Virus record (IMG/VR): IMGVR_UViG_3300032219_002612
Location: 1-57,648 of that record
DNA: 57,648 nt
Source: a virus
Lineage: Duplodnaviria > Caudoviricetes
Reading direction: 5' to 3' (one strand)
The translations under genes and the position numbers were made by a program. Below, one piece after another: positions 5,598 to 52,750 of the stretch. Numbering within the stretch: the stretch's first letter is position 1; every line of letters starts with the position of its first letter. The notes beneath the pieces were generated by a model, which was not told the origin of the DNA, made no database searches, and was given only the letters and a program-made list of their open reading frames with translations.

Positions 5598-8500
5598 TTA
5601 GTCTACGGTCTGACTTTTTGGATACAAGATGCCTTCTTGATTTTTTTCTAGAAGAACTTGGTATAGAATTGCTTTTTTAATTGGGTTTGCAACTTGAGGG
5701 ACAAGGGTAACAAACTCGACTCGGCTCATCTGCTCAAGTTGCGGTATCATCTGGCCAAGCACAGTTCGAATCTCTTTTCCGGCCCGTTGCGCCCATTCAT
5801 ATCTCTCGTCGTCGGATAGTTCTCGCTTTAGTTGATAGAAATCATCCACAGAAATCGGTTCCCCATTGGCTCTTTTTTGTTCGGATAGTTCCATCATCGC
5901 AAAATCTTTAAGAGGACCGGCCCCCCAATCCAAAGAGGTTCTATTGGCGGCGAACAAAGAAATCAACTTGTCGTGAATCGCTTGCTCACTTCGTTCCCCG
6001 TTGTCATACGCTTGCGAATCAACGCCGACAGTAGTCACGCGGCGAAGAAACGGAAGTGAGTTTTCAACTTGAGCTTTTACGTTATAGCCCAAGAAGTTAA
6101 GGTCTGGTCTGCCCACTTTAGACGCGAAAGGAACAGACTGCATAAAGGTGGATAGTAATCCCTCTTGATAAGGTCTTGCGGTGGGAGACCCAACTATTCC
6201 GTTAAATAATTGTTCGACGTCTCTAAGGGTTGCGTACCCGGGGATTAAACCCCCAGCGACATTCCCAACGGTTTTAACAAGATTTGTCATAATCCCCTTC
6301 GCGTCTCGTTGCCCAACCCCCGGGGATGTCAGCGACATAATCTGTCGTATCCCCGACAGAGCCGCCATATCTAAAATTCCGTACATAGCCAACGCCCCGC
6401 CGGTTAAGCCCCCTAGAATGACGGACTCTGCGGTAGACCGCTTGTCATATCGGATGGCTTCTACCATGGCGCCCGAAAGAATCAAAGGCCCGGATAGACC
6501 AACAGGGAATCCTTCAAAACTAAAGAACCTAGGCTTTCCATCTTTAAATTTACCAACCTGAATAGATCTGAGTTTTCCTCCGCCTGCGAAGAAAGCTTCT
6601 CGCTGGGCGGGATCGGAAGGTCCCTTAAAATGAATGTTAAGATAGGGATCGTCTTCGCCGCCAATTGCCTCCCGAAATAAAGTCATCAAAGTTCCTGTGA
6701 AAAGGTACCCCAAGATTTGTTTTCCTAACAGCAAATCGTGCTCTACCGTACCGGCGACAGCTGGCGGTCTATAATATTTAGTATCTTTCAACATACCCGC
6801 CGACCCTCGGTACAAACGAACCGTAGAAACTACGGGCATAAAATTTAAAACTTCATTTGCTAAGCTTGATCCTGTTTTTAAAAATTTAATAAACAACCGG
6901 GTAGGCCACGCTTTGGCAGACAGACTCGTTAAACTATCCGCGAGCAAACCAAACCAGCCCTCAAAATCATTAGTGAATGTAGCTTGCGCGCCAAAGGCTT
7001 TTGTTTTTGTAGTTAAATTTTTTACACTTTCTTCTTCTGGTCTTCCTTGTTCCAAAATTTCTTCGACCCGCAGGGCTTGTTGCTCTGAGGTTAAGTCGAA
7101 TTCTTTGGCGTCCGCTTCAGCTCTGGCTTCCGCTCGTTTCCTGGCTTCGGGGGTTAAATTCAAAAGACGAGTTACCTCTAATTCAATTTCATCATTTGAT
7201 TCTAAACCTTGGGAAATAGCTATATTAGTTGCTTCCGCAATCTCATACATTTTTTGAGAGGAGATTCTATTAATGGCATCGCCAGCCGCCATTGCTCGGC
7301 CAAAGAAAATAAACGGCGCTAGGGCCCCGTATTTACTACTAATAAGTTTTGAGTCTAAAGGTACTCTGTACTCCTGGCCCAATACGTTGACTGGAAGTTC
7401 AGGCTTCACGGTGCCAGGTTTCCCGGCCCGATAATCTTCAGCTTGTTTTAGGATTGCCTCCCACAGATTGACTCCCCCCAGCTCTTGGGTTAAAGCGTCT
7501 CGAACGTTTGAATAATCTCCGTTAAAGAAAACATTCATAGCCGCGTTCAACGCCGGCTTTTCACCAACAAAAATCGCCGAGTTTAAATCTAATGCGCCTT
7601 GCAAGTAAGCCTTACCCCGGGCCTTATCCCCAAACGCTGACCTTGCAGATCCCACCGCCGCTAGAATCCCCGCATTTAATTCGTTGCTGACAAGGGCAGA
7701 CCAACCGTTAATTCCTATGGTTCCAACGCCCGCCAGCAAATTAGAGGTTTGGTAATTAACAATCAATTCACCCCATACTTGCGGAGAAACTAACTTTACA
7801 TATTGATACATCTCCGAAATCTTTTTGCTGCGGATCATACCGGCGGGGTAAAGGGGAAGATCTTCGATTAATTTGTTTAGTCGTTTACGCTCTTCCTCTT
7901 TTAATTCTGGTAAGCCAAGCTGAGAATGCATCTGGGCAAATACTTCGTTGTCATTGAGCACCCCAAGATTCGCTGCCTCTATGAGTTTATCCAAAGCCGA
8001 CCGCATTTTACGAGTCTTACGTTCTTTCTTGGCTTCAAACCTTTTTTTAATTCTTTCAAGTTCCAACTTACGCTCACTCGCAATCAGCTCGGTTAAACCT
8101 TCTCGAAGAAAATCTGTTGCCTGCTTTTTTTGCGCCTCGTCTAGTGTTGTGTTTTGCGTCAACAAAGCCCCGAGCTTGTTTTCGAAATCCATGATATCAC
8201 CTTTACTGCTACGAATTAACCCGCGAACATTTGTTTGAGGACCCCCGATTGACTCGAGGGAACGAACCGCTTGCTTCAAGTTTGAAACTGTAAAGGGGCG
8301 ACCAAAAGCTTCCTCGATGAACGGCTCTAGGCCCATCAATTCTTCCTCCGTGTAAACCTCTTTTAGTGAGTCCCGAACGTTGTCAATGAACTCTGAGACT
8401 TCGGGATACTTGGCGATGCGGTCTCTTAAAACTTCGGCTTCAGATGGCTTTGGTTCTGGTTGGTAAGCAGGCTGCAATCCACCCATTTCTTTAGTTCTTT

Positions 8501-11500
8501 GGGCTATCAACCTACGAATGCGGGCCGCAAACTCTTCTAGTTGGTCTTTCTTTTTGGGTTCTTCTTGGAGACGGGCGGCTTGCTTTTGCAAGGCTTCCGC
8601 AGAAGCTTCGGCCAAAGCTTCGAGCCTCGAGCCAGCCTCGGTGGGTACGGCGACGGGGGCTCGGTCTTTTGCCCTGGCCTTGGCCCCAATTACTTGACGC
8701 ACCGCTTCTCCCCGTGTGGCCGGCGGTTGAATCCCCTCTCGGGCTCGGGCCTCACCTAAAGCTTGAGCGGAAAATATATCTAAAGCATTTGTTAGGGCGG
8801 CGTCAAAATAAAGATCTAATTTTCTTCTTACATTCTCCTGGTCTTTGGCGTCTCGAAGGGCGGGCGTTAACAACAGGAGACTTTTAATTTGTTCTTCTGA
8901 GGCCGCCGTTATTTCGGGGTTTTCGGAACGCTGAATAATTTCTAAAATCATTCGGCCCAAAGCTTTTGTCTGCTGAGGATTGAGCCGAATGCCATCTGAA
9001 TCGCTACCTTCAACTTCAGGAGCGGCGGAAAGATCGGCGCCCAAGAACTCTACTCCATCAGTTGCCGCCTGGGCGCTTCCGATGTATTCGGAGATAGCTA
9101 CCTCAAGCTCAGCAACGCTCGCCTGTTTTTTATTTAGCTCAACAAGTTTTGCAATTTTTTCTATTGTCGATTTTGTTTTTGAGTTAGTAACAAGTTTTTC
9201 TACGGCCCGTCTTGTTGAGTCTTTAAGACCTGAACTAATCTCACTTTCTTCCGCGGCGTAACCCGTCAATCGGCCTCGAACAGCAGAATCAATTTGCCTA
9301 CCAATGTACATTTTCATGGCTTCGGGGTTTGAAGAAAGTTCCCCAAGGGCGTTCCAAAGATCTACGGTGCGACCGGGATCTGTTCCATATTTTCTAGCGA
9401 TTAGAAGCATGACTTCAGCTAATTGCTCGCGGGCAAACAAATCAGTTTTCGCTTTGGGCCCTAAAATGTTTGCGAGTTCAAAACCAACCGCGGCTTGCAA
9501 TGGCAGTGAGCTTTTAATATTCCCACTCAAGAAATCATTTAAAGAATTTTGAACTCCGTTTGTTTTTATATAATCCCTGGCGTCAGAAAACTGTTGATCC
9601 CTGGGGATTGATTGATAATACCATGCGCTAGCAATTCTGTCCTTAATTTTTCCGTCGGGCAAAGCGTCTATAAATTTGGTTGCTATGCTCTTAACGGCCT
9701 TGCTTTCCCGAATTTCCGGTGCGGGCGCGGGTGCCGGTAGTGGCACGGAAATGGAAATTGGCTCCCCGCTTAAAGAAACTGAATTAATAATCGGACTCAC
9801 CACTACAACTTCGGGAGCGGGGGAAAGGCGTTTAGCAAACTTAGAAAACCCCGCTTCGCCTAAAGCTTTAATCAGAGCGCCTCTACCGCTTTTAACATAG
9901 TTATTACCGTTAAAAGAAATTACTTCTTGGCGGTCGAATAACCGGGAGACAGCGTTTGCAACCGCCTTGGCCGGGGAGGGAGCGGTGGTCGGTATAGAAA
10001 GAGCGCCAGGAATCTTGACTCGGTAGGATGCATAGACCGGAGACTCTTCGAAAGATTCGGAAGCGTTAACTACTTCTACGGGAGCAGACGTCGCGACTAA
10101 GGCCGCAACGGGTAACGATCTCCCGGCTTCTTCCATTCCCTCCGCTATCTCTAGAGCTTTGTTAGCTATGGCTGGAAGACTCGCTCGGCCACCGTCCATA
10201 ACGGCTTGTGTTGCCGCCCGGAAAAGACTTCGTTCGTCTTTAGTTATTGCGCCTCGCCGAGTGTTTATATCGAGAGCGTCCAGCCATTCCTCCACACCAA
10301 CGGTCTTAAATAAATCATCGGCAACCGTTACCCCAAGCACGCCTTCGGTTCTGCCTTCAAGATGGTTTTCAATCATGCGATAGATTCGAAGATCGTAGGA
10401 GTCGAAAGTGTTTGCGGGGCGGGGAGCGGCTGGGGAAGTCCCGGGGGACGGGACGGGGGATGGGGCGGGTTGGCTCGCGTCCATAAACTCTTTTGAATTC
10501 TTGCGGAGCGTTGAAAGAGCATCTTCGATGCTTTGACGCATTACCAAGCGATCCCTTGCGTTGGGGGCTAATCCCAAGCCACGCTTTACCACCGTGGCCA
10601 TACTGTCAAACCACACGCCCAATCTAGCGAGAACAGATTTATTTTCTTCTTTGAGAATATCCTTTAATCTTTTGGTCGCTCTGGCAATATCGTTTGCGTT
10701 GGTGGCCACGGCCAATTCTGTAATACTTCCGGTAAGATTAAGTTGGGATAGCTGACGAATTCCTTCCATGGCAACAAGATAAGAATCGTTAGCCAAGGCT
10801 CTAATCTTGGACTGCGTATCTGGATTGGTTATGTCAGACCCCGAATTAGAGAAATACAATCTGGCGATTGCGAGTCTTGCAGCTTGGGAGAGCGAGTCGC
10901 CTATTGCCCTGAGTTCTTCGATCGGGTCGAGCCCCAGCTCGCGGAAATATCGCAAGGTCTCCATGTGGATTGTTTCCTCCAGAAGACTTAAAGTCATAAA
11001 AGTTTTAAATTTTTCTGGGGAGAGAATTTTTTTCGTATTTTCTAAGAGGGCCGGGTTAACAAGAATTAAGTCCGACTCATTATCAGTTCCAACCATCACG
11101 GCAATGGCGTGGGTAAAGTCGGGATCAATTTTTACGTTATAATTATGAGCCTGCCCCTTGGCATCCCGGAAAGTAATAACATTATTTGAGAAGTCGGAAC
11201 CCAGGGCGAGCTTGAAAATTTCTTCCGTAGAAGCTATCTGTTCTGGAGTTGCCTGAGCCTCAGACCGAACGGGGGCAACAACTTCGGTAGGCTTGGGTGC
11301 AGCTTCTTCAGCCTTTAGTCCTTCAAACCCGGCACCAGTTGTGGCGTCCAGCAGACGAAGCTTGGCCCGCATACGGTCGATGTTCTGTTGGTCCACTTCT
11401 GCTTGAGACTCCAAGAAGATAAGGTTGGGACGACTTGCGCTGTCCGTTCTCCAGACTCGATAAATTAACTGGACGGCTTGGATTGCGCTGACCGGGGGAG

Positions 11501-14500
11501 ACATAATAATCATGTCTCGGGGTTGATCGCCAAACTTATCGTCCAACTCAATCCCGGTTCCACCCATCTCTTTCGTGGCAATTAGAACGTCAGCATCGCC
11601 TTCATTGAAGGCGGCCAGGGCTTGTTCTTTTGTTTGCCCAGAGCCGGTGTACATCCGAGCAATCTTTAGATCGGGAGCCAATTTGAGGATTGCAGCTTCC
11701 ACTGCCGCCGAGGTGGGGTCAACTGTTTCGCCCCGAGCATTTGTTTCGGAAACAAAGCCGACATAAATAATGGGTTTGCGACCTTGCCGAATTGATTTGA
11801 TGGCTCGCTTTGCCGCAGCGTCTACTTTGTATTCTTCAAGTGCTCGCTTCTGGGCGGCGACAAGTCTTCGTAAAGAAGCAATGTCGGTGTTTTGCGTGCC
11901 GCCGTACATATTTTTAATGTCTTCAAGTTGTTTGGTAATTGTCGAATCAAGTGGCACATCTTGGAATTCAACATTAACCCCATCGAGTCGAAGGGACCGA
12001 GAGCGAAGAACTCCATTCTTTACGAGCCCGTCGAGGTAAGCTTCCAGCCGATCTTGCATCTCTGCTTCAGAAACCCCCGGCGCCAAAGTCCAGTATGATT
12101 TCTTTCCGCCCCGAAGGTATTGCTTTTCAAACCCAAGCCGATTAATCAAGGCATCGGGAGACTCGTTGTCGAAAACACCAAGGCGACCAAGAGATAGAAG
12201 CTGATCGGGGGTTTCAAAGGGAGTCCCTGAGGCCATCAATACTCTGCCAGCTTTAAGCGAAATCTCGTTCATCAAGATCGACCACGCCCGGCTCTTGCCT
12301 TCTTGGGTAGCTTTGTGGAGGTTTCTTCCAGAATGCTGTTCGTCAAACAACACCACAGTTTTGCTGTCCACCAATGGAAGGAGTTTCTCTAGATACTGAG
12401 AGGTGTAGGTGGAGACAACAATCTTCCCCGGGATTTTTTCAACCGGGAGTCCGCGTCCATTATCCCCCTTGCCTCCCCGGGCCACAATGGGAATTCCCAT
12501 TAGCTCGGAGTCCTTGGCGATAGAACCACCGATGGTTCCCAAATCCCAATTCGGGGTTACTGCGTCGGGAGCGGTAAGATAGAAAACATTAAATCCCTTC
12601 GCTAAATAATATTTACCCGCTGCCAGCAGCACTCGAGTTTTACCGGTTCCGGGTCCGTTAGCCAGATAGAAAGCTTTATGCTTAGAGTTCTCCATCGTGG
12701 TAACGGCTGCTGCCACATCCTGCTTTTGCTCACTAGATAGAAGCTTTAAAGCTTCCACCCCGATTGGGTCTAGAACTTTTTCGTTGTAAGGTCTACCTAA
12801 CTGATTGCGGGGCTCGACGAAGGACTTGGGGAGCGGGGTGCCACGAGGGCGTTCAGCTCCAGGTCTCCCTGCTCCGGTTGCCTGACTTGCATCAACTCGT
12901 CCCACTTCTTTCCGCTCAGGGGGAACGGCTTCTTGAGAAACTCGCTTTGTGGTGGCAGCACGTTTGGCCTCGAGTTCCGAGAGCTTTTTGCGAGCCTCCT
13001 CACGTCGACCATCGGTTGTCTTGAGGTCGGGCTTTGTGGCTTCAGGTTGTTTGGATTCTTCATAGGTACCTTTCTCGTTTATGTTAAGTCCGCTATCGAG
13101 CAGGATTTGGTCGCTAACTCGGAGCAGATTCGATCGGAAGGTTAAAGCAATTTTATTTTTAGCTTCTCCCTCTTCAAGTGTTTGCGAAGCCAAATAGGGC
13201 TCCGCAAGTTTGTTTAGTTTGTCGATGTAATCATCGGCTTGTTTTTGTGACAGTCTGTCATCCTCTACCGCGTTCTTTAAATTGTTATCGATGGCTTCTG
13301 AGAGTTCCGTGATGGCTTCCGGAGAAAGCTTTTCTTGCGCGATCGACTCAATATAATTTTCAAAAGCCCGGAGCATTTTGACCGAACGAACTTTTTGCAC
13401 TTCCGACAACAGGGACTTTGCTCCCGCGAGTTCTTCATCGTCAAAGAAACTATCCGATTGTAGTTTGCGGAATCTTTCTGCCGCGGGTTGTATTTGAGCG
13501 GCTGTTAGATTTCCCTCTCGAACTAAGCCCTCCGGTTCGCTAACTGCGCGGGAAGGGAGAGTTCCCGCCTGCTGGTTCTTTCGGTACTCTCCCTCTAAAC
13601 TGGAGATAAATCTATTACGAACTACTTCTTGGATAACTTTAATATCGCCAACGGGAAGTTGGACTCCCGCAGCCTCCTGTTGGGTGATCTGTTTTCCCAA
13701 AACTAAAGCATCGAACGCGAGCTTTTCTGCTTCCGTAGTTAAAGTTTGTCTGAAAGAAGGAACAATCTGTTGGGCGAGAACCGCTAAAGCTTCCTGCCGT
13801 TGAGCTGGCGAGGGAACTTCAGACTGTCCGACAACCTGATTATCCACCTCCGTCGCGTCAATCTGATCAAGAGTTTCATTGATGGCCCCCGCGACGGCTG
13901 GGTTCAAACCCTGCTCCTCCGCCAACGTTTCCGCATCAACGGCGTTAACGCGTAGACCGGGAGTCTCGAGGCTTACGGCTGCTCCAATTCCGACGCCCGC
14001 TCGCATCCGAGGAACGGCTCTGCGAATAAAGTCCCGCAGCCGGCTATTAAAAATTGTACTAAGAGAAAGATTGTTTTTGCCCTGGCGAAGTTCGTAAAGA
14101 AAACTGTTGATCGTGGCAGAGGATACCTCATCGGATATATTATATTTTTGATACCCAGCCAAAGACTTACTTTGAAGATAAGATTTTTTGCGCTCAACGT
14201 AAGCCAATAGGGTTTCGGCGGGAGTCATGAGATCCCGACCGTTTTCGTCGATCGCTCCGAGGCTTTGGAGTAACTCAACCGTCGCGGGGTTTTTTAAATT
14301 AAAAACGCTGGCGAGAACATTTTGGGCGTTTTCTCTCGGATCGGGATTAAGCTTCTGATACTTTTGAAAAGATTCACTTTCCGGATTGTTGATCGGTAGA
14401 ATGACATCGGGTCTAGCCTCGAGCTCGGGGGCTAATTTTCCCTCGCGGGATTCTGCTTGAACTTCGCCCTCGAATTGTTGAACAAGTTTTGACACAGACT

Positions 14501-16811
14501 CTTCTCCTCGAACCAAGCGGGCGGCTTGCCCTTCAACCTGCATGGCCTGAAGTCTTGCCAGCTGTTCTTGCATGGCTGGTACTTCATCAACGGGGGCCTG
14601 TTTAATCTTAGTTTCAAGAACATTAATTTGATCCTGTAATTTTTTTGCGTTAATTTCTGCTGGTTTTTCAACCTCTACTAGATCTTGACTTCTGGCCAGT
14701 TTACTTTCCAAAGCAATTTCGTAATCGGTTGGCCCTAAATATTTTCTGGCCACTGATTCCAGGTCCTCAGGGGTTCCCGCTTGTTCAAGCTCAGACTCCA
14801 TTTGATCGAGCTCTTCTTGCTCAACCCCAACTTGTTCAGCTCGCAGGAGAAAATCATCTTTAAGATCTTGCTCAAATTCAATGGCCGGGATTCCGTTAAT
14901 CCAATTCCCCGAGTCTGTCTTTACATTCGTTACCGAATATACTTTTCCGTCGGTCGAGAGTTCTCCAACAATTCGTCCTTGACTCTCGAGCCATTGAATC
15001 TTCGAAGCATTCTGCGGAGAATTAGCCAACTCAATTTTTGTATTTCCAGCTTCAAAAACATTGACCAACTCGGCCAGGGCGGAAAGAGTTTCCTCCTCGG
15101 TTTCTGGGGGTCCCTCTTTTAAAATAGGGGCAACACCAACTCGACCCTCGGCCTCAGTAAGCTTGGCCGAGAGCATGGATTCAACAGCATTTTGTTTTGA
15201 GTTTTCGACCGCCTCGTCTGCTACCTTTGCAGTTTCCGGGGAAGTGATACTATCAATTGATCCTCTTACGTTGACCGCATCGAATAATGCTTGAGCTTTG
15301 GGGGAAGGGAGGGATTGACGGAGTTGGACAATTTGCTCCATCTTTTGTTGGTCGTTTAAATTGGGGTCGGTCTTTATACCAGCAACCGTTTGTTCAAGCG
15401 ACTTAGCGAATCGGTCGTCGGCCAATGCGTAAATTCTATTTCGTCTAGCCGCAATAGAACCGGATATGCCGGGAATAGCCATTCCCAATCCAATACCGCC
15501 AGAGACAGCTAGATTTTGCAGCAAAGGTTCGATCGGATCTTGACCTCGAAGTATGGCTTCGATTTCTTCCGAAGCGGTCTCCCCTAAGGTTGTGCCGACA
15601 ACTTTACCGGTACTACCCACTAGAGGGGCGAGGGCTGGCAAGTTGGTGGCGAGTGCTTTTGCGGCGACATGATTGGCCAAAGCAATATCAATTGAATTTT
15701 CTAATTTGTTTCCAGCGCCTTCCGCCAAGCCAAGAACGGCGCCCTCACTAAAAACAGAGGACAAACGCTGGGCGACAGAGAGATCCCGGGGATCCCCCTC
15801 AAAAGATTGGGACGCTCCAATTGTAGCGTAGGTCGCTCCTCGGGATAAAACAGTGGGCACCTTTATGGATTGATCCGCGATTTGAGCTGCGCGGCCTAAC
15901 GCTTTTGTTGCGACAGCGCCGGCGCCAATAAACGATCCGACCGAACCAATGGCTGCGCCCGCCAAAGTCCCGGTCATATAATCTTTTTGGATGGTGTTGT
16001 TGATTGAGTTTGAAAGGGCAGAACGTCTGGCAACTTGGTCGGGATCGTTTTCGTCGACTACAATATCCCCGATGGAAACAAATGGCAGAAACGCGTCGCC
16101 AGACTGAATAGCAAAATTTCGAAGGCTAGCCGAGCCCAACTTCTTGGAGCGATCGCTTTCCAAGTCGCGAAGGTAATTTTCCGCCATAGCGAGGTTCATT
16201 CCTAGCTTGGCTGTAAAAGGGCCCGTCCCAAAGGCCATAGCTGGGCTTTCGTCCTTAGGGGCGACGGACTTGCCAGCGGCTAGCTCATCCTCGTAAAGGG
16301 CGCCTAGCTCCAAAGCTTTGGCCGCCTGGCTTGGGTCTTTGATCGTTCCTATGTAGTTGCGGGCCGCAAAACTATTCTGCGTAATCTGCGCTTCTTCTTC
16401 GGTAATTCCCAAACCACTTTGTAAATAAGCCCCAATTGTTTTTCCCACGCCCCCTAAACTTAGTTTGGTCAGGGCCATCCAATCGCCCTTCTTCTCCGCC
16501 TCCATCAACTGCGGGCTTATTTCCAAGCTATAGTCGTAAACCTTTTTTTGAGCATCTAGCCACGATTCCTTATTGAACGGAAGCTTTCCTTCTTTAAGTC
16601 GAGAGGCAAGACCTCCGATCAGATCTACCGACTTCGGGTCGTCGCGGGTAGTGATTAAGTTTTGGGCTTGGGCAAGACTAGAAGAAGGAAGAGTAAAAAG
16701 ATTGTTTATTTCTTGTTGCCCAGAATCAAATAGACCCTCAATAGCTTGTTGTTCTTCGGGAAGCATAACCCCAAGTTCAGGGTTTGACTCAGGATTAAAT
16801 GGATCCGCCAT
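5598..16811 (-). CDS. giant polyvalent internal virion/ejection protein: ECF-sigma-like domain + Strawberry-notch-type SF2 helicase + zincin-like motif
   Basis: 3737 aa; third ejection-protein position after the tail genes; helicase motifs NGPGTGKT, FDEQH, SGT, GGTGIELDD, QLIYRVWR (nt ~12760-11350); sigma-like segment nt ~14230-13590; EETIH at nt ~10980. Confidence 0.85.
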   Translation of the reverse strand: MADPFNPESNPELGVMLPEEQQAIEGLFDSGQQEINNLFTLPSSSLAQAQNLITTRDDPKSVDLIGGLASRLKEGKLPFNKESWLDAQKKVYDYSLEISPQLMEAEKKGDWMALTKLSLGGVGKTIGAYLQSGLGITEEEAQITQNSFAARNYIGTIKDPSQAAKALELGALYEDELAAGKSVAPKDESPAMAFGTGPFTAKLGMNLAMAENYLRDLESDRSKKLGSASLRNFAIQSGDAFLPFVSIGDIVVDENDPDQVARRSALSNSINNTIQKDYMTGTLAGAAIGSVGSFIGAGAVATKALGRAAQIADQSIKVPTVLSRGATYATIGASQSFEGDPRDLSVAQRLSSVFSEGAVLGLAEGAGNKLENSIDIALANHVAAKALATNLPALAPLVGSTGKVVGTTLGETASEEIEAILRGQDPIEPLLQNLAVSGGIGLGMAIPGISGSIAARRNRIYALADDRFAKSLEQTVAGIKTDPNLNDQQKMEQIVQLRQSLPSPKAQALFDAVNVRGSIDSITSPETAKVADEAVENSKQNAVESMLSAKLTEAEGRVGVAPILKEGPPETEEETLSALAELVNVFEAGNTKIELANSPQNASKIQWLESQGRIVGELSTDGKVYSVTNVKTDSGNWINGIPAIEFEQDLKDDFLLRAEQVGVEQEELDQMESELEQAGTPEDLESVARKYLGPTDYEIALESKLARSQDLVEVEKPAEINAKKLQDQINVLETKIKQAPVDEVPAMQEQLARLQAMQVEGQAARLVRGEESVSKLVQQFEGEVQAESREGKLAPELEARPDVILPINNPESESFQKYQKLNPDPRENAQNVLASVFNLKNPATVELLQSLGAIDENGRDLMTPAETLLAYVERKKSYLQSKSLAGYQKYNISDEVSSATINSFLYELRQGKNNLSLSTIFNSRLRDFIRRAVPRMRAGVGIGAAVSLETPGLRVNAVDAETLAEEQGLNPAVAGAINETLDQIDATEVDNQVVGQSEVPSPAQRQEALAVLAQQIVPSFRQTLTTEAEKLAFDALVLGKQITQQEAAGVQLPVGDIKVIQEVVRNRFISSLEGEYRKNQQAGTLPSRAVSEPEGLVREGNLTAAQIQPAAERFRKLQSDSFFDDEELAGAKSLLSEVQKVRSVKMLRAFENYIESIAQEKLSPEAITELSEAIDNNLKNAVEDDRLSQKQADDYIDKLNKLAEPYLASQTLEEGEAKNKIALTFRSNLLRVSDQILLDSGLNINEKGTYEESKQPEATKPDLKTTDGRREEARKKLSELEAKRAATTKRVSQEAVPPERKEVGRVDASQATGAGRPGAERPRGTPLPKSFVEPRNQLGRPYNEKVLDPIGVEALKLLSSEQKQDVAAAVTTMENSKHKAFYLANGPGTGKTRVLLAAGKYYLAKGFNVFYLTAPDAVTPNWDLGTIGGSIAKDSELMGIPIVARGGKGDNGRGLPVEKIPGKIVVSTYTSQYLEKLLPLVDSKTVVLFDEQHSGRNLHKATQEGKSRAWSILMNEISLKAGRVLMASGTPFETPDQLLSLGRLGVFDNESPDALINRLGFEKQYLRGGKKSYWTLAPGVSEAEMQDRLEAYLDGLVKNGVLRSRSLRLDGVNVEFQDVPLDSTITKQLEDIKNMYGGTQNTDIASLRRLVAAQKRALEEYKVDAAAKRAIKSIRQGRKPIIYVGFVSETNARGETVDPTSAAVEAAILKLAPDLKIARMYTGSGQTKEQALAAFNEGDADVLIATKEMGGTGIELDDKFGDQPRDMIIMSPPVSAIQAVQLIYRVWRTDSASRPNLIFLESQAEVDQQNIDRMRAKLRLLDATTGAGFEGLKAEEAAPKPTEVVAPVRSEAQATPEQIASTEEIFKLALGSDFSNNVITFRDAKGQAHNYNVKIDPDFTHAIAVMVGTDNESDLILVNPALLENTKKILSPEKFKTFMTLSLLEETIHMETLRYFRELGLDPIEELRAIGDSLSQAARLAIARLYFSNSGSDITNPDTQSKIRALANDSYLVAMEGIRQLSQLNLTGSITELAVATNANDIARATKRLKDILKEENKSVLARLGVWFDSMATVVKRGLGLAPNARDRLVMRQSIEDALSTLRKNSKEFMDASQPAPSPVPSPGTSPAAPRPANTFDSYDLRIYRMIENHLEGRTEGVLGVTVADDLFKTVGVEEWLDALDINTRRGAITKDERSLFRAATQAVMDGGRASLPAIANKALEIAEGMEEAGRSLPVAALVATSAPVEVVNASESFEESPVYASYRVKIPGALSIPTTAPSPAKAVANAVSRLFDRQEVISFNGNNYVKSGRGALIKALGEAGFSKFAKRLSPAPEVVVVSPIINSVSLSGEPISISVPLPAPAPAPEIRESKAVKSIATKFIDALPDGKIKDRIASAWYYQSIPRDQQFSDARDYIKTNGVQNSLNDFLSGNIKSSLPLQAAVGFELANILGPKAKTDLFAREQLAEVMLLIARKYGTDPGRTVDLWNALGELSSNPEAMKMYIGRQIDSAVRGRLTGYAAEESEISSGLKDSTRRAVEKLVTNSKTKSTIEKIAKLVELNKKQASVAELEVAISEYIGSAQAATDGVEFLGADLSAAPEVEGSDSDGIRLNPQQTKALGRMILEIIQRSENPEITAASEEQIKSLLLLTPALRDAKDQENVRRKLDLYFDAALTNALDIFSAQALGEARAREGIQPPATRGEAVRQVIGAKARAKDRAPVAVPTEAGSRLEALAEASAEALQKQAARLQEEPKKKDQLEEFAARIRRLIAQRTKEMGGLQPAYQPEPKPSEAEVLRDRIAKYPEVSEFIDNVRDSLKEVYTEEELMGLEPFIEEAFGRPFTVSNLKQAVRSLESIGGPQTNVRGLIRSSKGDIMDFENKLGALLTQNTTLDEAQKKQATDFLREGLTELIASERKLELERIKKRFEAKKERKTRKMRSALDKLIEAANLGVLNDNEVFAQMHSQLGLPELKEEERKRLNKLIEDLPLYPAGMIRSKKISEMYQYVKLVSPQVWGELIVNYQTSNLLAGVGTIGINGWSALVSNELNAGILAAVGSARSAFGDKARGKAYLQGALDLNSAIFVGEKPALNAAMNVFFNGDYSNVRDALTQELGGVNLWEAILKQAEDYRAGKPGTVKPELPVNVLGQEYRVPLDSKLISSKYGALAPFIFFGRAMAAGDAINRISSQKMYEIAEATNIAISQGLESNDEIELEVTRLLNLTPEARKRAEARAEADAKEFDLTSEQQALRVEEILEQGRPEEESVKNLTTKTKAFGAQATFTNDFEGWFGLLADSLTSLSAKAWPTRLFIKFLKTGSSLANEVLNFMPVVSTVRLYRGSAGMLKDTKYYRPPAVAGTVEHDLLLGKQILGYLFTGTLMTLFREAIGGEDDPYLNIHFKGPSDPAQREAFFAGGGKLRSIQVGKFKDGKPRFFSFEGFPVGLSGPLILSGAMVEAIRYDKRSTAESVILGGLTGGALAMYGILDMAALSGIRQIMSLTSPGVGQRDAKGIMTNLVKTVGNVAGGLIPGYATLRDVEQLFNGIVGSPTARPYQEGLLSTFMQSVPFASKVGRPDLNFLGYNVKAQVENSLPFLRRVTTVGVDSQAYDNGERSEQAIHDKLISLFAANRTSLDWGAGPLKDFAMMELSEQKRANGEPISVDDFYQLKRELSDDERYEWAQRAGKEIRTVLGQMIPQLEQMSRVEFVTLVPQVANPIKKAILYQVLLEKNQEGILYPKSQTVD
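5600..5627 (-). promoter_or_regulatory. sigma70-type promoter (leaderless)
   Basis: TTGTAT-N16-TAGACT-N6-ATG(5593). Confidence 0.5.
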
Positions 16812-33651: not shown

Positions 33652-33690
33652 TAAAAGTGTGATCCCCCGGGGGGTAGAACCCCGGGGGAC
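33652..33690 (-). terminator. intrinsic terminator after capsid and decoration genes
   Basis: Stem tcccccgggg/ccccggggga followed by cacactttt on the - strand. Confidence 0.7.
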
Positions 33691-33701
33691 CAATTAGTTA
33701 T

Positions 33702-33992
33702 TTAGGCATTCAGATTACGCAACAAGGTTAAAATAGTATTAACCTTTGCGGAAACGGAGGCCAAACCATTTTTAACTGCGGTCAGGTCTGCTTGCGCGTA
33801 AGTAGCGCCAGCAGTGATTGCAGCAATAGTGTTGGAAGCCGTACCACCTGTTGAATCAGTGATCGCCGTCAGACTCGTTGTGGCTGAAGAACCGGTCAAA
33901 GTGGATGTCCACTCTGGGCCGTTATTCAATACACCACGAATCTGAGCCGCAAGCACATTGTCTTGCGTAGCCGTTTGGAGGGGGAAGCTCAT
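33702..33992 (-). CDS. capsid decoration / head fibre-like protein
   Basis: 96 aa directly after MCP; AITDSTGGTA...A.VSAKVN.IL..LR trimer-like C-terminus. Confidence 0.6.
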   Translation of the reverse strand: MSFPLQTATQDNVLAAQIRGVLNNGPEWTSTLTGSSATTSLTAITDSTGGTASNTIAAITAGATYAQADLTAVKNGLASVSAKVNTILTLLRNLNA

Positions 33993-34015: not shown

Positions 34016-35398
34016 TTAGCTAACGTAGTCAAGGCTGATCGGAGCGCGTTTGTGCAGGATGGCATAACCATACTGCGGGAACACGGGCCGAGCACCGCTG
34101 GCACAAACCCCGCGGAAATATCCGACATTTCCATCCGGGTTAGTCTGACGATCCAAGATGTTAACCCATTTAAACTCACCACGGTAGTTCTGGGGGTTGA
34201 ATGCCATCTTGTTGGCAGTGTTGACCGGGCTGGGAACGACAGAACGCATTACATCTTGGTGGAAGATGTAACTGATTTCATAGTCCGCTGTCTCATAGGC
34301 TGCGTTGATATCATACGAGGTACCCTTGGTGGTCGTGTTCTTCTTGAACGGATACGTGCGAATGAGTTTGTCATTCGTGGTATCATACACGCGGAACCGA
34401 GGAGGATACGCATCGATTGAATGATAGAAACCACCGTAGCTACGCTCAATCCCGAGAGGGGTGAGGAGCTCATTAGGCTTCGCATAACGGAAATCCTGAC
34501 GGATATCCGCGTTCAATCGGATGAGGCTCTCGCTGGTTTCCGCACCGCAGATCAACATGAACACCGGGGCTCCGTTTTCACGGCCCATAGCGTTGGTGCC
34601 TGCGCCGTCGCGGACCAATTTCATGTAGAGGCGTTTGAGGATTCCTTGAGTCAACTGGCTGGCGGGCAAGTTTGCCGCAGTGATGGCGCCAGAAGCGGCA
34701 GTGCCGACTCCGGCAGTAACCGCATCATAAACTACCTTCGCATCAGCCGAGCTGGACGAGCTGGAGGCAACGATAGAAGAGGTGCTGGGGTAAACCAGGT
34801 TTCCTTCGTTGGCAACTTGAGCTGTGAATAGATTGCGATAGCGATCCTGCCAGATCAAGGATGTGCTCTCAGTGAGAACGTCCATGATGTTGGACAACTG
34901 TTCCTTACGTTTCACTGCGAAGCGCAAGTCTTCGAGTGCAATGTCAGGAGAGTCGATCGACGCCCATTCCAAGCTGTACTGACGGAGCTTCTGACCGAAG
35001 GTCACGCCATTAAGAGCCTGGGGAAGAACGTTGCCCGCAGTGGAGGTGGAGGCCACAGGGGGTGTCGATCCGCCAGAAATCGTCTGGGTATAGGCGTTGA
35101 AACCGGTATAGGTTTGGTCAACAGGGTTAGAACCCAGTTTACGCCAGCCGCTACCAGCATCAGCCGTAATTTCATTTTCCGCATAACCATTGGTGTTACC
35201 GGCGCCCGCAAGGGTGAGAGAAGGATAGAACCGCTCGAAAGTAACCGAGCTGATTACATCGCCCATCTCCTCGGGGAATTGTTCCTGCTTGGTCAATTTG
35301 AGCCAAGCAGAGGTATCGATCGTCCGGCGATAAATCTCCGGTCCGATACGACCCGCTTCTTTAACGAGCAACTGCTCGATATTATAAGTTGTAGACAT
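34016..35398 (-). CDS. major capsid protein
   Basis: 460 aa after scaffold; strong SD (GAAAGGA), own promoter, biased codon use; ATG 35398 preferred. Confidence 0.8.
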   Translation of the reverse strand: MSTTYNIEQLLVKEAGRIGPEIYRRTIDTSAWLKLTKQEQFPEEMGDVISSVTFERFYPSLTLAGAGNTNGYAENEITADAGSGWRKLGSNPVDQTYTGFNAYTQTISGGSTPPVASTSTAGNVLPQALNGVTFGQKLRQYSLEWASIDSPDIALEDLRFAVKRKEQLSNIMDVLTESTSLIWQDRYRNLFTAQVANEGNLVYPSTSSIVASSSSSSADAKVVYDAVTAGVGTAASGAITAANLPASQLTQGILKRLYMKLVRDGAGTNAMGRENGAPVFMLICGAETSESLIRLNADIRQDFRYAKPNELLTPLGIERSYGGFYHSIDAYPPRFRVYDTTNDKLIRTYPFKKNTTTKGTSYDINAAYETADYEISYIFHQDVMRSVVPSPVNTANKMAFNPQNYRGEFKWVNILDRQTNPDGNVGYFRGVCASGARPVFPQYGYAILHKRAPISLDYVS

Positions 35399-35624
35399 AT
35401 TAGTAATTTTCCTTTCAACCTTCCCCCGCTCGCGCAAAGGGTCGGTTATGATTTATAATAAATGTGCCAACCTCTATCGAGGTTATCCACTTTCATTACT
35501 TTTCAAAACTTTTCCCTGGCGGCATCCCAGAGCTTTTAATGCCCGAATTCTGCTAGACCGTCTCAATCTTTATAGGTCTTGTTCAAGTAGGATCTCAATC
35601 TTTATACCTGCCTCGAACAATTTA
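35399..35624 (-). ncRNA. structured 5' leader of the capsid gene (candidate cis-regulatory RNA)
   Basis: Two hairpins with the identical loop sequence TATAAAGATTGAGA, a possible pseudoknot and two more hairpins. Confidence 0.5.
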
Positions 35625-35652
35625 AATGTATCAACCGGTTGGAACATGTCAA
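35625..35652 (-). promoter_or_regulatory. capsid gene promoter
   Basis: TTGACA-N16-TACATT with AT-rich upstream element. Confidence 0.7.
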
Positions 35653-35664
35653 TACTATTTTAAA

Positions 35665-36882
35665 CTATTTTCGCATTCCTCGCTCTAAGGCATCCAAAAA
35701 TCCCAAATCGGTTGGAACTTCGGGGCCTCCGCCTTTTTCTCCGCCGGAAGATGGCAGGGTGGAGCGTAGCTCTTTAGTCAGACTCTCTAGCTCTGATATG
35801 CGAGTTTGCGTCTTGGCTACGTAGTCTTGGAATACGTTCATCACGACCGGCATGGCCGCGGCATTGAAGGTAAGTCTGGCTTTGGCTTTAGGGTCAAGTT
35901 CTGTATTTTCAATTTGGAGGGCCTGCTGTTGAATACCGCTTAAAGCGTTATTCCAGGCTTCGTTGCCGTCAATAGGGCGTAGGAGAGCGTTTTCTTTTTG
36001 AAGATTTTCCCACTCTGTTTTATATGCGGTCTCAACCTCCAACTGACTTTGTTTATAGAACTGCTCCCTCTGCTGTTTCTCTTCTGTCTCCAACATTTGA
36101 AGCACTGTCTGGACGTCTTTAGTTAAGACATCCCTTCTAGCGAAAACCTTCTGGAGGTCTTCCGCCTTAGCCCGAATGGCCAAAGCGTCAACTGGGTCAA
36201 AAGAGGCAGTGGCTTCTTTTAGCAGGGCTCTGCGGGTGGCCGCGTTAGGCTCAACCATTGCCGCATAAATACCCCTGGGGTCTGCTTTATAAAGCTCCGC
36301 AAGTTCTGATACCTCCTGTTGAATACCTTTCAAAGGTTCGGTAACGGCTTGTTTATATTCTTTTGTAGATTCTAAACGAGACAACTTAAGTTCGCTTTCG
36401 TACTCGTCTCGCTCGGTTTTTAAGGCGTTTAACTGATTTTGTAAATCAATCTGTTCGACGGAATTAACGGGGGCTTCTGAAGTTTTTGTTTCTAATTCTT
36501 TAACTTTAGCCCTAGAGTCTCTTAGATCTTTAGTCAAACGAGCCCAAGCAGTTTGAGCTTCGGGTTTAAGATTCTCCGGGGGTTTTACATCAATCTCATC
36601 GGTAGTGGCGGGGGTAGTTTTTGTGTCTTCCTGACCCGTCATTCGTTTGGTCAATACGTCTAAAGGATTAGTTAATGCCGAAGCGTCAGTTTTTGCGGGC
36701 TCAACGATTTTGGTCGTTTCGCTGGGGGCTGTAACTGCTGTCGCGGTCGGCGCAACTTCGGGCGTTGGGGCTTTGTCCAAAGCCTCAAATCCAACGTTAA
36801 AAGCGTCAGCAAAGCTTAAATTATCTGCTCCCGCGGATCCTGCGACTGCTGGTTCTGGGGTGGCTGTAGTTGTTTCACTCAT
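35665..36882 (-). CDS. capsid scaffolding protein
   Basis: Disordered N-terminus plus long coiled coil, between portal and MCP. Confidence 0.75.
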   Translation of the reverse strand: MSETTTATPEPAVAGSAGADNLSFADAFNVGFEALDKAPTPEVAPTATAVTAPSETTKIVEPAKTDASALTNPLDVLTKRMTGQEDTKTTPATTDEIDVKPPENLKPEAQTAWARLTKDLRDSRAKVKELETKTSEAPVNSVEQIDLQNQLNALKTERDEYESELKLSRLESTKEYKQAVTEPLKGIQQEVSELAELYKADPRGIYAAMVEPNAATRRALLKEATASFDPVDALAIRAKAEDLQKVFARRDVLTKDVQTVLQMLETEEKQQREQFYKQSQLEVETAYKTEWENLQKENALLRPIDGNEAWNNALSGIQQQALQIENTELDPKAKARLTFNAAAMPVVMNVFQDYVAKTQTRISELESLTKELRSTLPSSGGEKGGGPEVPTDLGFLDALERGMRK

Positions 36883-52667: not shown

Positions 52668-52750
52668 TGGGAGGAGCTGGATTTGAACCAGCGAAGGCAT
52701 AAGCCAGCAGATTTACAGTCTGCCCCGTTTGACCGCTTCGGTATCCTCCC
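52668..52750 (-). tRNA. tRNA-Tyr(GTA)
   Basis: Acceptor GGGAGGA/TCCTCCC+A, anticodon arm GCAGA-CTGTAAA-TCTGC, long variable arm, T-loop TTCAAAT; no encoded CCA. Confidence 0.93.

Follow-up and report, generated by a model that had tools for sequence, protein, structure and literature searches.

The ompA leader of Escherichia coli and the T7 gene 10 leader belong to mRNAs with very high expression; in each, a hairpin stands at or next to the 5' end, and the ribosome-binding region behind it is open and A-rich. In the T4 gene 32 leader pseudoknot and the MS2 coat-protein operator hairpin, the RNA is bound by a phage protein and sets the synthesis of that protein or of its neighbour; in gene 32, part of the operator is a 5' pseudoknot at a long distance from the start codon. 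According to extracts from PMC7652899, the flhDC mRNA of E. coli carries two CsrA sites near its 5' end, which protect it against RNase E and raise expression; such sites typically lie in hairpin loops, are bound in pairs by the CsrA dimer, and have a GGA that CsrA needs and that was 100% conserved in SELEX. Of the HK022 antiterminator RNAs putL and putR, putL, as outlined in an excerpt of PMC9378689, is an RNA of ~70 nt with two stem-loops just downstream of PL; put RNA acts in cis without a phage protein.

The leader analysed in this study lies in front of the major capsid protein gene in a linear IMG/VR record of 57,648 bases (CheckV completeness estimate, 81%); "the window" denotes this whole stretch. 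Much as in ompA and T7 gene 10, a hairpin predicted to lie at or next to the 5' end is followed by an open ribosome-binding region; to our knowledge, those leaders are shorter and have neither duplicated conserved loops nor an invariant core shared by phages whose proteins have diverged. The leader also resembles flhDC in its paired loops, which begin ~12 nt into the predicted transcript and, at a spacing of 32 nt, are close enough together for a single dimer; the loops of two related groups (clades C and D, defined below) contain the sequence A-Y-GGA-A-G. However, the window's loops read AUUGAGA, with UGA instead of the GGA found only in clades C and D, and are 15 nt long, in contrast to the hexaloops described in the CsrA extracts. 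Since the window's loops lack the obligatory GGA, CsrA serves as an analogy and not as evidence of membership.

The first two hairpins (35618-35555, 64 nt) are likewise two stem-loops behind a promoter, as in putL, but the put loops are not identical copies and one clade here (B) lacks both hairpins. The central core of the leader recalls preQ1-I and SAM-II in its size of ~35 nt, its invariant A-rich single strands, its covarying stem and the possibility that the loop takes part in a second stem; it differs in having no Rfam match, no overlap with the Shine-Dalgarno sequence, and a candidate second stem whose 3' connecting loop would be only 1 nt long. Unlike in the autogenous operators of T4 and MS2, no phage protein is indicated as the partner: the capsid, scaffold-like and 96-aa proteins are retained both where the twin loops occur and where they are absent.

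Results

Capsid gene and transcription unit

The following features frame the leader.

34016 to 35398, minus strand: major capsid protein gene, 460 aa (identified with AlphaFold2 and Foldseek)
35652 to 35625, minus strand: sigma-70-type promoter with TTGACA (35652-35647), a 16-nt spacer and TACATT (35630-35625), scored 10/12
33660 to 33992, minus strand: likely end of the transcription unit, with a 96-aa ORF (33702-33992) and a terminator-like hairpin (33692-33660)

The preliminary description had called the gene behind the leader a capsid gene, and its fold bore this out. Pfam and PHROGs gave no match for the 460-aa protein or for 17 homologues, and Pfam gave none for 10 distant representatives of the capsid homologues. 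When 118 sequences were supplied, AlphaFold2 produced a model with a mean pLDDT of 81.2 (36 with 17 sequences instead). The best Foldseek matches in the PDB were capsids of phage N4 and its relatives (E = 2.6e-11, probability 1.00); for the N4 capsid chains, E ranged from 2.6e-11 to 7.4e-10 and the TM-score from 0.47 to 0.57. Because the modelled fold matches N4-type capsids, we accepted the capsid identity, and on this model the gene is confirmed as encoding an HK97-fold major capsid protein of the N4 gp56 type. Language-model features of the protein also led to capsid clusters. DARPin matches obtained in a PDB profile search were spurious. A profile search with the capsid protein retrieved 683 representatives at E up to 0.001, and no cultured relatives were found in the phage collection by blastn or tblastn.

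The gene belongs to a co-directional block on the minus strand that runs from ~41242 down to 1778. Within this block just two gaps exceed ~40 nt, one of 226 nt with the terminator-like hairpin and the other, of 266 nt, with the capsid leader; the latter separates the stop of a 405-aa ORF (TAG, 35667-35665) from the ATG of the 460-aa ORF (35398-35396). The leader of ~220 nt does therefore stand out among short leaders, as had been noted from the sequence. The TTGACA/TACATT promoter reported ahead of it is present as listed, with an additional TG at 35633-35632 ahead of the second hexamer. From the promoter geometry, transcription is predicted to start near 35619-35617; the first hairpin begins at 35618, 7 nt past the -10 hexamer, with the 5' end placed by prediction. 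Of the 13 pairs in the terminator-like hairpin 10 are G-C, a T-rich tail comes next, and the transcription unit likely ends in this region (33660-33992).

Several neighbouring genes were also inspected. Clades A, B and D all retain the Thr/Ala/Gly-rich 96-aa ORF that immediately follows the capsid gene; its product is possibly a head decoration or fibre protein. The upstream 405-aa ORF (35665-36882, minus strand) is without a family match, acidic and, by eye, rich in coiled coils; its protein ends in a conserved ...LGFLDALERG... motif common to the clades, and we infer that it is probably a scaffolding protein. In clade D a homologue of it lies ~2.8 kb further upstream. At the end of the structural block, a 3737-aa ORF (5598-16811, minus strand) gave weak, sub-threshold matches to SNF2/Strawberry-notch-type helicase domains (AAA_34, Helicase_C_4, ResIII). 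Family scans of the 62 ORFs of the window detected a family A DNA polymerase, helicases, a dCMP deaminase, an Ogg-type glycosylase, a trypsin-like protease, and tail and virion proteins. No RNA polymerase, sigma factor or RNA-binding protein appeared among the 18 Pfam families and the best 25 of the 38 PHROG families for these 62 ORFs of a record estimated as 81% complete; the lack of an RNA polymerase and a sigma factor among the families listed fits dependence on the host polymerase.

Relatives of the leader

Within IMG/VR, which set the range of this comparison, a protein-based search yielded 34 related loci and a profile-based search 61. With a DNA pattern for the core hairpin, 60 stretches were retrieved, and the 28 that came from new loci consisted of 14 true members and 14 chance matches in coding DNA. 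A looser core pattern gave at least 119 stretches. Among the 102 matches in new loci that were examined, 12 had at least 5 of the 6 stem pairs; seven of these 12 were members, five of which came from a new clade (D).

The members fall into four clades. Clade A contains the window and 19 other distinct full leaders, with capsids 76-91% identical to that of the window; clade B contains 15 distinct leaders, with capsids 41-46% identical to it. Clade C is represented by one complete 80-kb record, and clade D by five loci with a capsid homologue of 500-506 aa and a different upstream gene. In each case seen, the element is preceded by a TTGACA promoter and followed by a capsid homologue, and this also holds in clade D with its different upstream gene; TTGACA and its spacing are retained in clades A, B, C and D, and the capsid N-terminus, M-(S/A)-T-T-Y, starts at the position of the 35398 ATG in all clades. 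The window has all the features by which we define the family, namely the CGGGCA flank, the covarying 6-bp stem, the GAUGCCG loop and the position between the TTGACA promoter and the capsid homologue. Its leader thus belongs to an RNA family that had not been catalogued before and that occurs in freshwater phages without cultured members.

A different leader, ~250 nt long and downstream of a TTGAC-type promoter, precedes capsid homologues that are more distant (39-41% identity; L259:945-1192, L263, L264, L267, L280 and L261). In six sequences of this type, 21 of the 55 predicted pairs are compensatory, and a covariance model of the core (R1, see below) misses them with a best score of 9.8 bits. 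At least two further leader types were recognised by eye (L262/L270/L271/L284 and L274-L279).

Architecture of the leader

The leader was divided into the following parts, given from 5' to 3'.

35581 to 35618, minus strand: P1 (hairpin 1), 11 pairs, 35618-35607 with 35591-35581; 15-nt loop UAUAAAGAUUGAGAU at 35606-35592
35555 to 35579, minus strand: P2 (hairpin 2), 5 pairs, 35579-35575 with 35559-35555; 15-nt loop UAUAAAGAUUGAGAC at 35574-35560
35533 to 35545, minus strand: single-stranded 5' flank of the core, CGGGCAUUAAAAG; GGCA at 35543-35540 is the 5' strand of a candidate pseudoknot
35514 to 35532, minus strand: P3 (core hairpin), 6 pairs, CUCUGG (35532-35527) with CCAGGG (35519-35514); 7-nt loop GAUGCCG at 35526-35520
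35445 to 35509, minus strand: P4 (GUU.UGA with UCA.AAC), enclosing P5 (35499-35455)
35423 to 35441, minus strand: P6 (last hairpin; CCCUU.GC, GCGA, GC.GGGGG), 35441-35434 with 35429-35423
35396 to 35416, minus strand: Shine-Dalgarno sequence GAAAGGA (35416-35410) and ATG (35398-35396)

Each hairpin was found where the preliminary description had placed it, including AACCTC/GAGGTT and the last hairpin before the Shine-Dalgarno sequence. The AACCUC-GAUA-GAGGUU pairing (35484-35479 with 35474-35469) is the tip of the long hairpin P5. Clade A closes this tip with the tetraloop GAUA, clade B with UUCG and clade D with GAAA. P6 belongs to clade A only and is missing from clades B and D. The Shine-Dalgarno sequence and the ATG are unpaired in both consensus folds (clades A and B). 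The parts follow one another as a 5' module, the core, a long hairpin and an open ribosome-binding site, and the element is built of modules, since clade B puts another 5' module before the same core.

In clade D (L358:5045-5153, minus strand, and other loci), GAGAUCC occurs twice, as the 5' strand of hairpin 1 and just past the core, and a U-rich run stands behind the long hairpin. An alternative fold or termination might exist in this clade alone.

Folding and covariation

The minimum free energy of the leader was -59.7 kcal/mol (z = -2.88), and one of 200 shuffled sequences folded as well. The consensus fold of the 20 distinct clade A leaders, obtained with RNAalifold, has 56 pairs in 8 helices; 98.7% of the 1117 cells were paired and 17 of the 56 pairs were changed on both sides, values reached by 0 of 500 shuffles. 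When the partners were slid by 1-3 columns, 37-47% of the cells were paired.

Covariation within clade A is carried by P1, P2 and P5, and P4 and the core stem are invariant there. In P1, 97.3% of the cells were paired and 4 of the 11 pairs changed on both sides. For P2, which was assessed with 13 distinct sequences from clades A, C and D, the corresponding values were 93.8% and 3 of 5. The long hairpin P5 (helices 6 and 7) had 10 of 16 pairs changed on both sides. P4 (helix 5) was not seen in the other clades, and P6 (helix 8) was 100% paired with one-sided changes only, at 5 of its 7 pairs. In the clade B fold, 11 of the 30 pairs were compensatory. Conservation and covariation among the capsid leaders of relatives, the check proposed from the sequence, are thus both present (17/56 in clade A, 11/30 in clade B and 5/6 pairs in the core), which supports a real, selected RNA structure in front of the capsid gene.

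Core hairpin and candidate pseudoknot

The pairing of CTCTGG with a downstream CCAGGG, earlier suggested as an interaction of a hairpin loop, proved to be a real 6-bp stem. Among 23 distinct 45-mers from clades A to D, 138 of 138 cells of this stem were paired and 5 of the 6 pairs were changed on both sides, a result that none of 500 shuffles reached. The strands observed were CUCUGG/CCAGGG, CUCCGG/CCGGGG, CUUCGG/CCGAGG, CUCUGC/GCAGGG, CUCCCU/GGGGAG, and UCUCGG with CCGGGA or CCGGGG. Around the varying stem, the flank CGGGCA (C5 to A10), A13, A16 and the loop GAUGCCG are invariant in all 23 distinct cores, although the capsid proteins of the clades are only 43-46% identical. The covariance model R1 scored 67.8 bits at the core of the window and at most 12.7 bits elsewhere in it, and neither the window nor the complete 80-kb clade C genome holds a second copy of the core.

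The sequence GGCA(U) at 35543-35539 is complementary to (A)UGCC at 35525-35521, within the 7-nt loop of the core hairpin. GGCA and UGCC are complementary in 23 of 23 cores, and the four pairs never vary and hence give no covariation signal either way. Judged by this complementarity, a GGCA/UGCC pseudoknot is possible. A classical coaxial H-type geometry would be too short, since a single base (G35520) must cross the 4-bp stem; a kissing-loop-like 3' stack could pair the four upstream bases, for which the 7-nt A-rich linker is long enough. It is also not very improbable that a 4-nt complement arises within the 13-nt flank by chance.

Two other interpretations of this region were rejected. An upstream reading frame from the AUG of the core loop would encode MPPG in the window and MPPR, MPAG or MPGE in other clades, and these changes follow the base pairing. 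Alternative pairings of the core strand with P4, of an anti-Shine-Dalgarno sequence with P6, and within the GAGAUCC repeat of clade D were seen by eye in single clades and are not conserved.

Twin loops

Hairpins 1 and 2 had been reported to carry the same 14-nt loop on different stems. The identity holds, as the 57,648-base window contains two exact copies of the 14-mer TATAAAGATTGAGA (35593-35606 and 35561-35574, 32 nt apart) and no other copy with fewer than 2 mismatches was found there; the length does not, each loop being of 15 nt. The complete 80-kb relative, like the window, has no exact loop sites beyond the two in its leader.

In all 32 of the 32 distinct 150-nt leader 5' parts with twin loops, both loops were present at a distance of 32-36 nt. 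The two stems are unlike in sequence, one being closed by G-C and the other by C-G. The loop consensus is UAUAAARAYUGARAY in clade A versus UAYAAAAAYGGAAGN in clades C and D; between clades both loops shifted together from UGAGA to GGAAG, and within clade A they vary slightly and independently. Because the loop sequence is kept on differing stems and changed in concert, this comparison supports the idea that the twin loops behave like recognition sites. They occur in three clades (A, C and D), and clade B has a different covarying 5' module before the same core. The loops are accordingly not needed for the role of the core, which clade B keeps without the twin hairpins.

Databases and RNA libraries

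The Infernal search of Rfam that had been proposed for the leader was carried out and gave no family at threshold. Over 35300-35750, four matches were obtained at E up to 10, the best with 17.2 bits against a threshold of 49. In the whole window, the only match to Rfam 15 was a tRNA gene (52668-52750, minus strand). A search of the full-text literature found nothing relevant on a capsid-leader RNA motif.

Near-identical sequence was found in public runs, six of which are RNA libraries. We examined four of these RNA-library runs, which came from freshwater or lake water in four different studies, and each contained contigs on the leader. A contig of 1461 nt (X3, 34071-35531) joins the capsid gene and two thirds of the leader. 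Since DNA can occur in RNA libraries, this bridging contig is a weak indication that leader and gene lie on one RNA. In two runs (X13 and X18), no bin from 35654 upward was covered, where contigs cannot mark a transcription start; in the other two (X3 and X8), only contigs of relatives, with 112 replaced letters, continue from 35654 upward. A single X13 contig ends at 35600, inside loop 1, and then runs into an Illumina-adapter-like string; this could be the end of an RNA or of a fragment.

Discussion

In the reading that we favour, the leader is a cis-acting structured element that binds a putative factor and so tunes the stability or translation of the capsid mRNA; we hold this tentatively and give it not quite an even chance. 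A strong host-type promoter would start the transcript one or two bases before hairpin 1, as far as the start can be placed from the promoter. Hairpins 1 and 2 would then present two sites near the 5' end for one, probably dimeric, putative RNA-binding factor. The 35-nt core would act as a second, independent recognition module, whose loop possibly pairs back to GGCA, and the long hairpin and the last hairpin would serve as spacers that keep the Shine-Dalgarno sequence and the ATG open. The ribosome-binding site would not be masked by the leader; overall, the leader would regulate, and probably raise, the stability and translation of the message of the virion gene with the heaviest expression. 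The earlier proposal of a protein-binding regulatory RNA is partly upheld, in that the leader is structured and selected and has recognition-like loops, but nothing specific was found for scaffold or capsid autoregulation. Candidate factors were examined by co-occurrence. The 96-aa ORF, the scaffold-like 405-aa protein and a 102-aa protein are found in clades with and without the twin loops; because these neighbours are kept in both, co-occurrence singles out no binding protein.

The leader may instead be generic and free of any factor, its hairpins shielding the 5' end from RNase while the ribosome-binding site stays open and its conserved bases serving folding and tertiary contacts. P1 starts only a few bases from the predicted 5' end, stable tetraloops (GAUA, UUCG and GAAA) cap P5 and the Shine-Dalgarno sequence is open, all as such a role would have it. 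It would explain much, since the leaders of the distant capsid homologues are also long and structured but quite unrelated in sequence, one type with the 21 of 55 compensatory pairs given above. However, the unpaired flank bases and the 7-nt loop are invariant across clades of ~45% protein identity, and the two 15-nt loops have stayed identical to each other and shifted jointly. As unpaired bases are invariant and twin loops change together, the constraint exceeds what stability alone would impose, and we judge a purely generic role unlikely, though well worth keeping in view.

In another arrangement, which we regard as decidedly unlikely, the core would serve as an aptamer-like module, its partner being something universally conserved such as a small molecule, host RNA polymerase or the ribosome, and the 5' modules would be interchangeable accessories.

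That the core is a small metabolite-binding pseudoknot, which would make capsid synthesis conditional, is very doubtful. Its invariant unpaired bases around a covarying stem, together with the conserved 4-5 nt complement, are what a riboswitch-like aptamer would be expected to have. The riboswitch-like reading offered in the preliminary description nevertheless received little support. Besides the sub-threshold Rfam scores, the core ends at 35514, ~100 nt from the Shine-Dalgarno sequence (35416-35410), which is open in the consensus folds; no terminator-like site was found in the leader of the window, and no alternative pairing between the core and the start region is conserved. The pseudoknot stem is moreover without covariation, and coaxial geometry leaves a single base over its 4-bp stem.

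It is similarly very improbable that the leader acts like HK022 put RNA, binding the host RNA polymerase and allowing readthrough of the 33692-33660 hairpin into ~30 kb of structural genes. Two stem-loops stand right behind a strong promoter, as putL does according to the excerpt of PMC9378689, a terminator-like hairpin follows downstream, and a host partner under strong conservation would account for the invariant core. On the other side, no sequence likeness to put was seen, both hairpins are absent from clade B, and the genes upstream are co-directional, so that the structural genes need no new promoter.

A processed or stand-alone trans-acting sRNA, with the leader as its precursor, had also been suggested. 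RNA-library contigs over the leader in all 4 runs examined, one of them ending at 35600 with adapter-like letters, would agree with this, but contigs reveal neither the ends nor the levels of an RNA. In the window, no terminator-like site was found between the leader and the ATG, the X3 contig bridges leader and gene, and a 9-mer from the single strand of the core recurs only once more in the window (9509-9517, minus strand). The sRNA reading is thus disfavoured, and we assign it a very slight probability.

Finally, a DNA-level role, whether as operator repeats (14-bp direct repeats 32 bp apart, or about three helical turns, just downstream of the promoter) or as an antisense gene for a 71-aa protein (35448-35663, plus strand; stop-free for 53-91 codons in 18 of 18 clade A relatives checked), can be dismissed as extremely improbable, because the stems covary and use G-U pairs workable only in RNA of the minus strand, and the antisense ORF has variable sites of 27/57, 23/57 and 21/56 by codon position, with no third-position bias, and in clade B the core lies in other frames.

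Beyond a few model phages, little work has been done on structured leaders as determinants of structural gene expression. The RNA described here is modular, supported by covariation and without an Rfam family; it comes from a freshwater lineage of uncultured phages whose capsid is of the N4 type, and parts of the leader sequence are better conserved than the capsid protein itself. The presence of unrelated long structured leaders on related capsid genes suggests a lineage-wide need. If the core is an aptamer-like module, it would be a riboswitch-like or put-like RNA that ties major capsid synthesis to host conditions. Should the twin loops or the core be bound by a factor, the leader would constitute a new post-transcriptional control point for capsid production, and would provide a compact RNA-protein or RNA-ligand pair for tool building.
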